Shown here piece by piece: positions 788-11,443 of a stretch of DNA of 20,000 bases. How positions within the stretch are numbered: position 1 is the first letter of the stretch; each line of letters begins with the position of its first letter. Source of the stretch: an uncultured virus (IMG/VR IMGVR_UViG_3300039136_000054) (Duplodnaviria; Heunggongvirae; Uroviricota; Caudoviricetes); the IMG/VR virus record IMGVR_UViG_3300039136_000054. One strand, given 5' to 3'. The notes beneath the pieces were generated by a model. The model saw only the letters and a list, made by a program, of their open reading frames with translations, was not told the origin of the DNA and ran no database searches. The position numbers and the translations under genes were made by a program.

Positions 788-955
788 TCACTTAACGTAG
801 GTGCGACCACGATAGCAGAATGTACCATGAGCTTCTTTGCTTTCTACGCAACGCTGATCATACTCGACACCACGATATGCGGTAGCGGTGATCTGTGCAT
901 CGTGCAGTGCAGCTGCCTTCTGGATCTGCTTCTTGATGAGAGTGAGGGTGTTCAT
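788..955 (-). CDS. DUF4278-like small protein (55 aa) with two YRG repeats (AYRGVEY, CYRGRTY)
   Basis: ATG 955 with AGGAGA SD at 962-967; lies directly downstream of the glnA-like aptamers, the known context for DUF4278 genes. Confidence 0.8.
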   Translation of the reverse strand: MNTLTLIKKQIQKAAALHDAQITATAYRGVEYDQRCVESKEAHGTFCYRGRTYVK

Positions 956-995
956 TGTAGGTCTCCTAAAAGAATGGGATTGTCGCCCCGTTCCT

Positions 996-1163
996 TCAGT
1001 CGTTTGCGCCCCAAACATCGAAACACTCTGGTACATAGTCCTTAACGGTATCTACCAGTTCTATTCTAACCTCTGACTCCAGGTGCTTTTGCTTTTGGAT
1101 CCGAAGGATTAAAGCATCGGCATCTGGACATGCCATCGATGAATACAAAAGTAATTCAAACAT
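996..1163 (-). CDS. 55-aa hypothetical protein inside aptamer 2 (MFELLLYSSMACPDADALILRIQKQKHLESEVRIELVDTVKDYVPECFDVWGAND)
   Basis: Hand translation (below the ORF-track cutoff); GGAG at 1174-1177; aligns with 1199..1399. Confidence 0.75.
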   Translation of the reverse strand: MFELLLYSSMACPDADALILRIQKQKHLESEVRIELVDTVKDYVPECFDVWGAND

Positions 1164-1198
1164 GGGGTGAACGCTCCGTTCCGCGACTTACTTGCGTC

Positions 1199-1399
1199 CT
1201 ATGTATACAACCCGTCGCATTGACCTTCCACCTTTGTCTTGAGATATCCAATAATATTCATCTTCGATCGAAGATCAAGATGAGGATCTAATTGAATCTC
1301 CACTCGACGTTGGAGGAACCTTTCACACGACATGTGCCACCCGTAGGGGTTGCCGTCATCATGATGGGCAAGGGTCAATGCCAGCAGGATGCTGAACAT
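1199..1399 (-). CDS. 66-aa hypothetical protein inside aptamer 1, hydrophobic N-terminus
   Basis: ORF track; start and stop codons sit in the two strands of the P2 stem. Confidence 0.75.
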   Translation of the reverse strand: MFSILLALTLAHHDDGNPYGWHMSCERFLQRRVEIQLDPHLDLRSKMNIIGYLKTKVEGQCDGLYT

Positions 1400-1417
1400 A
1401 AGATGAACGATTGCTAT

Positions 1418-1448: not shown

Positions 1449-1464
1449 TGTAACATCCGCTACA
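1449..1464. promoter_or_regulatory. NtcA-type box TGTA-N8-TACA
   Basis: tGTAacatccgcTACa directly upstream of the -35 element. Confidence 0.6.
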
Positions 1465-8788: not shown

Positions 8789-8860
8789 AGCGGATGATCG
8801 GAATCGAACCGACGACATCTAACTTGGAAGGATAGCGTTCTACCGCTGAACTACATCCGC
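8789..8860 (-). tRNA. tRNA-Gly(TCC), CCA not encoded
   Basis: GCGGATG/CATCCGC acceptor stem, CTTCCAA anticodon loop, GGTTCGATTCC T arm. Confidence 0.93.
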
Positions 8861-8864
8861 AGGG

Positions 8865-9056
8865 TGGGAGAGCGTTACTTCTCCCTAGGCTCGCCACTTG
8901 TTCTTTCACTGGAAACAAGAAACCAGGCGGCAACAATCACCCGCACCACTTGCTTTTGAGGAGAAGCAAGAAACCCGAGGGGTCTGGGACCCATCCCGAC
9001 CAGGGCGCTTTTAGCGTCGTCCCGAGACGTGGGTCATAATGACTCCACCAGGGTAG
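8865..9056 (-). ncRNA. Structured ncRNA, manA-like (wcaG-like submodules)
   Basis: About 200 nt of non-coding DNA abutting tRNA-Gly; two pseudoknot modules each ending in UGGYG; terminal GGGAGA/UCUCCC hairpin. Confidence 0.65.
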
Positions 9057-9065
9057 GTTTAGAGT

Positions 9066-9482
9066 CTATCCAAGACTAATGGTGTCGTTACCATCTTCAT
9101 CATCCTTGACTTGATAAGGATCATTGAAGGTGATGGTATCCGTACCTTCTGCACCAGAGATGACGGTATCACCACCAAAGTCTAGCACATCCTCACCGAT
9201 ACCACCGAAGGGAATGTTAACAGGACCAGCAGCTGCTGCACCAAAGGTTTCTACATTAGTAGCATTCAGATAGTCGGACTGCAACTGGAAGTTGTAACTA
9301 GACTCATCGTAGGATGGGTACTCACTGGGAAAGTTAATAACCATACCAGTTTCCATGGGTTCCATGGTACGCAGTTTGTCATAGATCTCAAAGAGATCGC
9401 GAACAGAGTCACCACTCTTGTTCTGCAGTGCTTCCAGCAGTTCCTGGCGCACTAGTTCTTTTGCTTCAGCGAGACGAGACAT
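9066..9482 (-). CDS. Hypothetical acidic protein (138 aa, MSRLAEAKE...)
   Basis: ORF track 9066..9551; ATG 9482 overlaps the end of the upstream gene. Confidence 0.7.
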   Translation of the reverse strand: MSRLAEAKELVRQELLEALQNKSGDSVRDLFEIYDKLRTMEPMETGMVINFPSEYPSYDESSYNFQLQSDYLNATNVETFGAAAAGPVNIPFGGIGEDVLDFGGDTVISGAEGTDTITFNDPYQVKDDEDGNDTISLG

Positions 9483-9705
9483 TATCTTTGATGTAACAAG
9501 GGACAGTTTCGGGATCCAACCACTTCGTATACTCGAAGTCCTCCATGGCAATAGTCATCTGCATGGCATTGTCACAGAGGTACATGTCAGAGTACCGCTT
9601 GGTGTACTCGTGTGCTTTTTGAATACGAAAGTCAGGCATCCCGTTGGTTTCCAGTGTACCACACTCGACGTAGCGGTAGGGGAAACGCTCAAGAAGGATT
9701 TTCAT
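9466..9705 (-). CDS. Conserved cyanophage hypothetical protein (MKILLERFPYRYVE...)
   Basis: ORF track; TAATG coupling. Confidence 0.8.
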   Translation of the reverse strand: MKILLERFPYRYVECGTLETNGMPDFRIQKAHEYTKRYSDMYLCDNAMQMTIAMEDFEYTKWLDPETVPCYIKDNVSSR

Positions 9706-9929
9706 TAGTAGGAGGGATCTCCAGGAACGTCATCATCATAGGGCAAGTCAGGCATAATGTCAAGCAGTGGTTCGATCTCTTCTGTGATCGGTGCTGCGAT
9801 GACTGCACTGCCATCAGGGCGACGTACTAGGAAGTGCTCGCCCTGATTCTCAATCAGATCCATGTAGTTATCGAAGTTAGCTTGGAACTCTTCTTCGGTA
9901 ACCTCACGCATTTCTTCTACTTGTTTCAT
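9705..9929 (-). CDS. Phd/YefM antitoxin-like small protein (74 aa)
   Basis: ATG 9929 in ATGA overlap; VTEEEFQANFDNYMDLIE...HFLVRRPDGSAVIAAP resembles the Phd N-domain; acidic tail. Confidence 0.6.
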   Translation of the reverse strand: MKQVEEMREVTEEEFQANFDNYMDLIENQGEHFLVRRPDGSAVIAAPITEEIEPLLDIMPDLPYDDDVPGDPSY

Positions 9930-10171
9930 ACGTTGCAACAAATATTTTGTTCTTGAAGATACTTGATAGTTTCTGTACATCCACCTAGGTGCTTCTTGTC
10001 CATAAGAACTTGTGGGAAAGTTGTTCCCTCCCCAAACAAACTATAGAAATCAGCACCAGTGAAGTCTCTACCTAAACGATACTCTACAAACTTGAACTCA
10101 TTCAATTCAAAAAGCAATCTGATCTGCTCACAATAGCGGCAACCGTGCTTTGAATAGATGGTGAAGGTCAT
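9926..10171 (-). CDS. Glutaredoxin
   Basis: CRYC, TTFPQV, LGGCTET motifs. Confidence 0.92.
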   Translation of the reverse strand: MTFTIYSKHGCRYCEQIRLLFELNEFKFVEYRLGRDFTGADFYSLFGEGTTFPQVLMDKKHLGGCTETIKYLQEQNICCNV

Positions 10172-10818
10172 TTAGAAAGTTGGGCGAAATCCTGTTCAAA
10201 AATATTTAGACCAGCGTCGGTCAGAACGTGGTTGTACATTTTATCAAACACTGACACAGGTAGAGTGACTACGTGAGCACCGTACAAGAGACAGCGAGCA
10301 ACGTGATGAACATCACGAAGAGAAGCAGCGAGAATCTGGGTCTTCTGTGCCTGTGTGCAGTAAAGACCAGAGATAGCACGAACCAGTTCGACGCCACTGC
10401 AACTATTATCGTTCATCCGACCCACAAATGGGGAGATGTATGTGGCACCTGACAAAGCGGTCACCGCTGCTTGAGCAGCAGAGAAGCACAGGGTCACATT
10501 AGTCTTGACGCCACGACCAGAGAGTTCCTTGCAGGCAATCAGACCCTCTTTGTGGAGGGGAAGTTTGATAGTCACTGCTTCACCCAGACCGATGTAGTTC
10601 TCGGCATCCTCTAGGAGTTCTTCTGCTGTATGTCCATTGACTTCTGCTGATACAGATTCAAACCCAAAGGACTCATCACACAACTGTGCAATAAGATCTC
10701 GGTAGGGCACACCTTGCTTACGAACAAGTGTAGGATTAGTTGTTACGCCTGCGATGATACCAGTACGAGATCTCTCAAGAATGGCACCGAAGTCTGCTGT
10801 GTCTAGAAAAATTTTCAT
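10168..10818 (-). CDS. talC: Transaldolase (TalC/FSA family)
   Basis: MKIFLDTA start at 10818, GVTTNPTL, TIKLP, NVTLCFS, YISPFVGR, ILAASLR. Confidence 0.97.
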   Translation of the reverse strand: MKIFLDTADFGAILERSRTGIIAGVTTNPTLVRKQGVPYRDLIAQLCDESFGFESVSAEVNGHTAEELLEDAENYIGLGEAVTIKLPLHKEGLIACKELSGRGVKTNVTLCFSAAQAAVTALSGATYISPFVGRMNDNSCSGVELVRAISGLYCTQAQKTQILAASLRDVHHVARCLLYGAHVVTLPVSVFDKMYNHVLTDAGLNIFEQDFAQLSK

Positions 10819-10846
10819 TGTAATATTGTTGGTATAGATGTACCAA

Positions 10847-10920
10847 TCGGGGTGATAGGATTTGAACCTACGACCTCCCGCTCCCAAAGCGGGCGCTCTA
10901 CCAAGCTAAGCTACACCCCG
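10847..10920 (-). tRNA. tRNA-Pro(TGG)
   Basis: CGGGGTG/CACCCCG acceptor stem, CCCGC-TTTGGGA-GCGGG anticodon arm. Confidence 0.95.
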
Positions 10921-10929
10921 TTAAAGGAG

Positions 10930-11181
10930 TCAACGCTCCTCAAAGTCAATTCGTCGGACCTTGCGTTGTCGCCTCTCCTCCTGAAAAACCAAGTCTTGTG
11001 GTGATAGATTCGGAGTAGACTTGTGCTTCTGGGGACTCGTTAGAATCTCTACCAGAGACAGATCCTTCCCTGATATGTTGGTCCCACGGATGCTCGTAAG
11101 GTTCGGGCACCCGCAGCACCTGGTCTTGGAGGGATGACTCTCTAATACTTTCCCGCAATTCTTGCATCTGATACTTAACAT
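10930..11181 (-). CDS. Small zinc-ribbon protein (CxxC...CCGC)
   Basis: IRCKNCGKVLES...CCGCPN. Confidence 0.75.
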   Translation of the reverse strand: MLSIRCKNCGKVLESHPSKTRCCGCPNLTSIRGTNISGKDLSLVEILTSPQKHKSTPNLSPQDLVFQEERRQRKVRRIDFEER

Positions 11182-11278
11182 TGTCTAGCGCCACTCTAAT
11201 TAGTGCTAACTCTTCGTGTATATCCTGATGGTGAAAGCGCAATGGTTTCTGCAAAAGTCTTTTAAGTTTCTTTTTCAT
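10946..11278 (-). CDS. Hypothetical coiled-coil protein overlapping the zinc-ribbon gene in another frame
   Basis: 110-aa ORF starting right after tRNA-Val; basic helical N-terminus. Confidence 0.5.
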   Translation of the reverse strand: MKKKLKRLLQKPLRFHHQDIHEELALIRVALDNVKYQMQELRESIRESSLQDQVLRVPEPYEHPWDQHIREGSVSGRDSNESPEAQVYSESITTRLGFSGGEATTQGPTN

Positions 11279-11291
11279 GAGGATTTAACAC

Positions 11292-11365
<74 letters not shown>

Positions 11366-11369
11366 GAGG

Positions 11370-11443
11370 CGTCTTGGGCAGGACTCGAACCTGCGACCGA
11401 CTGTTTAGAAGACAGTTGCTCTATCCAGCTGAGCTACCAAGAC
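11370..11443 (-). tRNA. tRNA-Arg(TCT)
   Basis: ACTGT-CTTCTAA-ACAGT anticodon arm, GGTTCGAGTCC T arm. Confidence 0.95.

Follow-up and report, generated by a model that had tools for sequence, protein, structure and literature searches.

Two short open reading frames (ORFs), each bounded by what look like the arms of a glutamine-sensing RNA, lie close together in a viral genome, and they raise the question of whether they are diverged copies of one gene and what such genes would do inside a riboswitch. The window, i.e. the whole stretch of 20,000 nucleotides analysed here, comes from a 73,485-base virus record that, judged from translated psbA-, psbD-, nrdA/B- and transaldolase-like ORFs and a wcaG RNA, is a T4-like cyanophage. 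The answer we favour, and consider rather likely to be correct as a whole, is that ORF A and ORF B are distant paralogs belonging to one cyanophage family of two-cysteine helical-hairpin microproteins, that they travel as optional cargo in the P2 loops of the RNA and that they are predicted disulfide-stapled binders of a host envelope protein under nitrogen control. The features on which the argument draws are the following.

1450..1463, minus strand: NtcA-type box GTA-N8-TAC, a putative site matching the consensus from PMC3037559.
1418..1447, minus strand: predicted sigma70-type promoter, conserved in position, with TTGACA (1447-1442), an 18-nt spacer and TATACT (1423-1418).
1397..1409, minus strand: predicted outer aptamer 5' strand, with P1 (1409-1405) and the P2a 5' arm (1403-1397), which contains the ORF A ATG.
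1199..1399, minus strand: ORF A, 66 aa, family A (phrog_6471), with a short hydrophobic N-terminus, Cys25 and Cys61, and predicted helices 25-36 and 43-54.
1184..1203, minus strand: predicted P2a 3' arm (1203-1197, containing the ORF A stop), joining strand with the loop-E AGUA (1196-1189) and shared P3 5' strand (1188-1184).
1163..1183, minus strand: predicted inner, circularly permuted aptamer core, with the P1' hairpin (1181-1177/1173-1169) and the P2b 5' arm (1167-1163).
996..1163, minus strand: ORF B, 55 aa, family B (phrog_504), with Cys12 and Cys47 and predicted helices 12-24 and 30-43.
988..1013, minus strand: predicted P2b 3' arm (1013-1009), inner joining strand (1008-1003), shared P3 3' strand (1002-998), loop-E GAA, outer P1 3' strand (993-989) and linchpin G988.
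963..979, minus strand: predicted expression platform, in which 979-966 pairs with 986-999 without ligand, covering the first bases of the Shine-Dalgarno sequence (967-963).
788..955, minus strand: DUF4278/IF17-like gene, the likely regulated downstream gene (phrog_545; Pfam PF14105, E 3.3e-4).

The match of the last gene to PF14105 scores 21.4 bits, under the cut-off of 25.3. On its 3' side, on the same strand, lie a second YRG-containing small gene (520-678, phrog_6192) and a conserved small hydrophobic ORF (687-791), which are probably part of the same operon. In three studies, metatranscriptome contigs from relatives span roughly 494-1433, a result to which we give little weight because the contigs carry no strand information.

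The first-pass annotation had aligned the two ORFs without gaps, and this alignment holds as described, with identities at core positions 1, 3, 13, 14, 18, 19, 32 and 35, a closing cysteine at 39/38 and an MFx(I/L)LL start in both ORFs. Taken by itself, the similarity of the pair is marginal. BLASTP of A against B alone gave E = 0.036, the Smith-Waterman score was equalled by 224 of 5000 shuffles (p about 0.045), and at the DNA level no similarity was detected (723 of 1000 shuffles match the score). Comparison across the families indicates that some of the shared residues are accidents of this pair. Among the representatives (39 for A, 37 for B), Q14 is shared by only four in A and five in B. 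H18 is found in five of those in A, and in B histidine does not rank among the top five residues there. The MFx[IL]LL start is carried by 7 proteins out of 141 in A and 36 out of 166 in B. What is family-wide is a core composed of hydrophobic-[ST]-Cys, a hydrophobic residue at 13, Leu19, Lys/Arg24, hydrophobic residues at 27-28 and 31, and the closing cysteine.

That both ORFs are real genes, as had been proposed, is borne out by full-length matches to PHROG profiles (ORF A to phrog_6471, E 1.4e-36; ORF B to phrog_504, E 5.2e-22) and by purifying selection. The median pN/pS against one reference was 0.18 for A (n=84 homologs) and 0.31 for a 53-residue B (n=33), and codon changes in both fall mostly at third positions. 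All members of the PHROG alignments match their own family (22/22 for A, 52/52 for B), and a tblastn search with an E limit of 1 returned 62 phage records for A and 310 for B. The two entries, which correspond to T4-like GC 429 and GC 430 and whose syntenic hypothetical genes are annotated in P-HM1, P-RSM4, P-SSM4 and S-TIM5, stand in PHROG as two separate families without function; here we unite them, together with one or more additional subfamilies, in a single superfamily. Neither ORF has a Pfam family, and neither has a relative in the PDB by sequence (best E 0.62-0.64). Fold comparison against the PDB returned generic helical matches (best Z 5.2, rmsd 2.7 and 51 aligned residues for B; 3.7, 9.3 and 54 for A) and the ESM Atlas unnamed clusters only, so that across Pfam, the PDB and the ESM Atlas no known fold or function was found for either protein.

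The relationship between the families becomes clear with deep profiles, and in the register that had been proposed. The HHalign probability was 0.4% with close homologs only (77 + 39 sequences), a shallow result that reflects alignments that are too uniform, 75% with the cores of 12 + 55 representatives, 87% with full-length alignments of 22 + 52 and 92.6/94.1% (E 4.5e-7/1.3e-7, 39 columns) with the cores of 39 + 37 representatives, a set from which ten chimeric or fragmentary sequences and all those without a complete two-cysteine core had been excluded. Protein searches and RNA-pattern searches supplied the loci for the loop ORFs, and the distant A members came from the 85 matches of a profile search that covered 1.84 billion proteins. 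The controls were 53 further ORF clusters of these loci, some being shadow frames, which are shallower than A and B (Neff 1.2-3.4 among the top matches listed) and none of which exceeded a probability of 4.5%; a reversed profile gave 2.3% and none of 150 column shuffles reached the score. Thus, the profile-profile comparison yields a significant match over the full core, well above controls, and we consider that A and B very probably share a common ancestor, as far as sequence comparison can tell.

An opposing view is that A and B are unrelated amphipathic hairpins that converged and look alike through similar loop length and a shared cysteine pair. The weak pairwise and sequence-to-profile scores speak for it. 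In the external PHROG profiles (38,880 families) 2 of 22 A members match phrog_504, at best with E 0.028, which agrees weakly with a common origin; the B profile scores most A members near 0 bits, and full-length B was absent from the 85 matches of the A profile. Once both cysteines and the two residues before them are left out, the HHalign probability of the interior falls to 27% (E 6.9e-4; 12% with shallower cores), indicating that the cysteines carry much of the score. Against convergence, the score climbs with depth, spans the full core with one gap and lies far above the 53 controls. The top true sequence outside families B and G found by the B profile is an A member (13.1 bits; best of 7,470 unrelated decoys, 9.2), and a further family, C, is linked both to B (94%) and to A (71%). 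Common origin is also the simpler explanation for the occupation of the same RNA loops, and we consider convergence improbable. Family E matches B (92%) and not A (0.25%), and family D reaches about 22%. A tree of the 39 columns sets A apart from the rest (98/97) with a long branch between A and B, its bootstrap being unsettled and its support rough. An in-register A/B chimera (P0221) was set aside as one sequence on one contig and a possible assembly artefact, and a viral-contig search with P0190 gave no match.

The RNA around the ORFs is the second part of the answer. About 5,300 sites in viral contigs match the junction pattern. Across the 353 parsed, non-dereplicated reads in which covariation was examined, the segment that follows loop E pairs with the one preceding the final GAA; 50 distinct combinations occur, many of them with changes on both sides of the helix. 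Furthermore, 22 loci carry a first-half G at the linchpin position, and in all 22 the C comes after the last GGAACG, not the first. The pairing across halves and the linchpin imply that the outer core is a Glutamine-I aptamer and that a second, permuted core sits inside its P3 and shares that helix. We therefore read the region, from sequence patterns, as a single double glutamine aptamer with interlocked halves, in which each P2 loop serves as a slot for cargo. The closure of P2 around the ORFs shows covariation, and thermodynamic folding of the window recovers both P2 stems, mostly at pair probabilities over 0.95, together with the inner P1'. The outer P1 and P3 have a probability of 0.0 without ligand, so they rest on covariation and on stabilisation by the ligand. 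Two independent tandem aptamers were also considered as a model and are ruled out by the linchpin and the P3 covariation; a P1 made from the first half only does, however, fold with a probability of 0.3. The description of both proteins as enclosed in loops does not wholly hold for ORF B, whose last five codons and TGA stop are aptamer nucleotides (1013-996).

Rfam detects no glutamine riboswitch in the window, where the gathering score of RF01739 is not reached; since the inserts break the model, we regard the RNA as a variant of RF01739 and not a standard member. A natural empty version (L193) scores 43.6 bits against the 35-bit cut-off. With Glutamine-I the RNA has in common the three-way P1/P2/P3 junction, loop E, the long-range linchpin pair and the downstream DUF4278 gene; it differs by the second permuted core in P3 and by whole genes in its P2 loops. 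Earlier papers place glnA RNA (RF01739) ahead of gifB/DUF4278 genes (PMC6212724), report glnA RNAs in cyanophages, one of 99 nt (PMC9964418), and mention tandem glnA RNAs (PMC2864571). The C-G linchpin of Glutamine-II (RF01704) and equivalents of C1, G18, C39 and G40, which contact glutamine in its structure (PMC6698751), are found in both cores; a two-piece RNA binds glutamine according to the same source, so long loops need not prevent folding. Unlike in Glutamine-II, GGAACG is not in a hairpin loop, P3 spans both halves and loop E is present, and empty versions score under the 33-bit cut-off of RF01704. Because Rfam misses a riboswitch whose loops contain genes, the number of riboswitches in phages is probably underestimated.

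The proposed tie to a glutamine aptamer is supported among close relatives. Both aptamer flanks were present in 158 of 158 assessable close homologs, that is at 79 of 80 A and 79 of 80 B loci, the one exception in each being at a contig edge; these were the best 80 of 483 (A) and of 394 (B) matches and are thus biased to close relatives. Among divergent A loci (49, of which 7 were at an edge or unmatched), 29 of the 42 assessable had both flanks, five a 5' match only and eight neither. An unbiased sample of 120 loci contained 106 that fit the interlocked pattern, 100 of them complete, and here ORFs were found in both loops in 12, in the first only in 10, in the last only in 48 and in neither in 30. 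In targeted searches, whose counts are not frequencies, family A occupied the first loop 141 times, the last 15, the middle 2 and a single aptamer once; family C was found three times in each of the first and last loops and family B in the last only (171). The confinement of B may be due to its stop codon usually being borrowed from the last arm, which it enters by 13 or 16 nt in 168 of 171 units. A pattern covering part of family B gave one match to a B-type gene in a first loop, with no aptamer around it. Judging from this distribution, cargo is probably transferred from one loop to the other by recombination, with the short repeats on either side of each loop as the sites of exchange.

The annotation had proposed duplication of an aptamer+ORF cassette. 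Part of this stands, as the aptamer itself probably arose by tandem duplication; the halves, on the other hand, form one interlocked RNA in which ORFs are optional. Duplication of a single aptamer+ORF unit, whose copies diverged into the interlocked RNA with A and B, is thus possible only, with ORFs optional, A in both loops and A outside aptamers, and we rate it as somewhat unlikely. It would predict the same 8-mer in both arms, as is seen in one common type (48+7+6 reads), and single aptamers do exist that hold an A ORF (L332, L333) or a B-type ORF (L422, the second unit of a true tandem). Such single aptamers are rare, however (1 of 127 matches carries an ORF), A occurs without aptamers (the eight divergent loci above, and podoviruses), and in L519 and L526 it lies upstream of a compact riboswitch, which fits later capture. 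The long, roughly supported branch between A and B also counts against a single duplication, and with loop contents found in both slots, present position says little on origin. We therefore keep to optional cargo that is probably exchanged between slots.

As to the proteins themselves, the proposed two-cysteine helical family is supported, with predicted helices and a cysteine pair in all sampled loop ORFs. Among 493 distinct loop units 348 contain an ORF, and every one of these 348 distinct ORFs has two cysteines 30-42 residues apart, against 72 of 631 control ORFs. AlphaFold2 models (mean pLDDT 77 for A and 81 for B) agree in having two helices each, with helix 2 starting at Cys1+18 in both; their Foldseek neighbours are shared weakly, with 9 of the 15 top B neighbours within the top 29 of A, all at E > 0.007, and cross-hits at E > 0.01. 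An A ortholog was not among the top 50 Foldseek neighbours of B, and a predicted ORF B homodimer (score 0.02) gives no evidence either way. The two cysteines are likely to staple the hairpin through a predicted disulfide. An N-cap motif was considered and dropped. A hairpin stapled by a disulfide and binding to another protein is the most likely form for A and B to take. The target may, at a guess prompted by small size, fast divergence and optional presence, be a protein of the host envelope, for instance a nitrogen transporter or a phage receptor, a suggestion that is tentative.

Export, which had also been suggested, is plausible for A and doubtful for B. A proteins start with a median uncharged run of 11 residues without a positive n-region, some distant members have full-length signal-like starts, and we lean towards export of this family. 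Family B has 7-19 residues ahead of the first cysteine, an uncharged run of eight residues and an acidic start in 156 of 166 proteins, and its export is rather unlikely. A lipobox ahead of the first cysteine was found in 0 of 141 A and 1 of 166 B proteins. Alternatively, the proteins could be cytoplasmic, redox-switched binders acting in the manner of CP12 or NblA on a nitrogen or light-harvesting protein. The lack of a credible signal peptide in B and the nitrogen-linked operon agree with this, as does the size and shape of A and B, which we take to be like those of NblA and CP12. Neither of these was among the listed fold or Pfam matches, and Pfam searches of the 22 A and 52 B alignment members gave single-member chance matches with none consistent. 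Since families A, C, D and E have uncharged N-terminal runs of 10-19 residues, and given the signal-like starts of distant A members, we consider a cytoplasmic role rather unlikely and tentatively prefer binders of an envelope protein.

Nitrogen also appears in the control of transcription. Of 200 distinct upstream regions, 176 contain an NtcA box at a distance of at most 80 nt, compared to 4.6 in shuffles, and sigma70-type -35/-10 elements follow the box; in the window it is 26 nt from the -10, a spacing that fits activation or repression alike. NtcA sites in cyanophage genomes are reported in PMC3037559, and IF17-like genes switched on by glutamine riboswitches in cyanobacteria in PMC6212724. 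At the downstream end, a ligand-free hairpin over the ribosome site has pair probabilities of 0.95-1.0 over most of its length, and the 3' strand is predicted to cover the start of the site in the window and in 152 of 178 tails with a site, a count made without shuffle control. On this basis we propose that one transcript would start from the NtcA-linked sigma70 promoter. Without ligand, the 3' strand of the aptamer would hide the first part of the site at which ribosomes load onto the IF17-like gene; translation at low glutamine would thus fall to the cargo genes. Glutamine would stabilise the nested fold, tying up both start codons in P2 stems and freeing the ribosome site of the IF17-like gene. 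The chances of this combination of NtcA promoter, glutamine fold and opposite regulation of loop and downstream genes, modelled as it is, appear about even to us.

The same geometry suggests that the proteins might matter little and that the ORFs act in cis like leader peptides, a ribosome at the ORF B stop opening the hairpin over the IF17-like ribosome site and translation competing with aptamer folding. The ORF B stop (998-996) lies within the strand predicted to cover that site, and besides the near-constant position of this stop in the arm, start codons are found in or beside P2 stems. A folded product is nevertheless implied by the invariant cysteines, conserved core hydrophobics and purifying selection, free-standing homologs retain the same features, and 30 of the 100 complete loci have no ORF at all. 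A purely cis-acting role thus seems to us rather improbable, but a cis role can coexist with a protein role, and functional proteins remain our preferred reading.

Among open papers in PubMed Central and bioRxiv, searches listed none that deals with genes enclosed by a glutamine aptamer, with two aptamers interlocked or with proteins of this family. The closest likeness, as described in PMC2839356, is to the PeSL cassettes of T4-type coliphages, in which repeated regulatory elements flank small non-essential genes and mediate their recombinational shuffling; here too repeats flank small genes, the repeats being arms of a ligand-sensing RNA and the cargo one protein family. Two unannotated families from hundreds of cyanophage records are joined in one superfamily with a defined core and placed in a nitrogen-sensing operon, which bears on how marine phages sense and steer the nitrogen status of the host. 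Paralogy alone is of moderate interest, and the surprising parts are the exchange between slots and the predicted opposite regulation. More speculatively, and with less confidence than in its components, the riboswitch could double as a gene-cassette system with exchangeable P2-loop slots and fast-diversifying disulfide-stapled microproteins, in which high glutamine would silence the genes in the loops and turn on the glutamine-synthetase inhibitor encoded downstream; if true, the phage would possess a nitrogen switch that works in both directions and whose effectors can be exchanged. Built-in controls are provided by natural variants in which no loop, one loop or both loops hold a gene, and cultured carriers are available (Syn9, S-SM2, P-SSM4 and S-TIM5).

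Several further observations were made along the way. The RNA determines the C-terminal tails of the cargo proteins (loci L161-L283). Those in the first slot finish with GRK-stop and those in the last with DAND or DAKAD, and A-family proteins in the last slot acquire the DAKAD tail. A conserved empty P2 hairpin of 22 nt, found in 7 + 7 distinct units across both slots (L171, L181, L188, L206 and others), may be a protein-binding site. Three-unit chains (L358:461-780, L293/L378) have an extra aptamer half and an A-family ORF in the middle loop. T7-like cyanophages carry an unannotated A-family ORF between hli and psbA (L164:1484-1650, L165:1500-1655) with no aptamer, its N-terminal part overlapping hli in another frame, and P0194 is a single-contig Hli-A fusion. 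The free-standing A gene of L519 (L519:1462-1944), which adjoins a T7-like polymerase fragment, has a compact glnA riboswitch and a YRG gene some 200 nt downstream. Cellular genome collections gave 15 matches, several on short MAG contigs that may be phage DNA, and the interlocked aptamer with a B-family ORF occurs on two contigs of cellular assemblies, L391 (Nonlabens, 188 kb) and L385 (Synechococcus MAG, 194 kb), which have the size of a myovirus genome and are probably phage DNA. Elsewhere in the window, the minus strand bears the wcaG RNA motif (RF01761, 80.9 bits) at 8883-8978 and, at 172-372, a conserved small protein (phrog_665) with three cysteines close to its C-terminus, and four tRNAs lie at 8789-11443.
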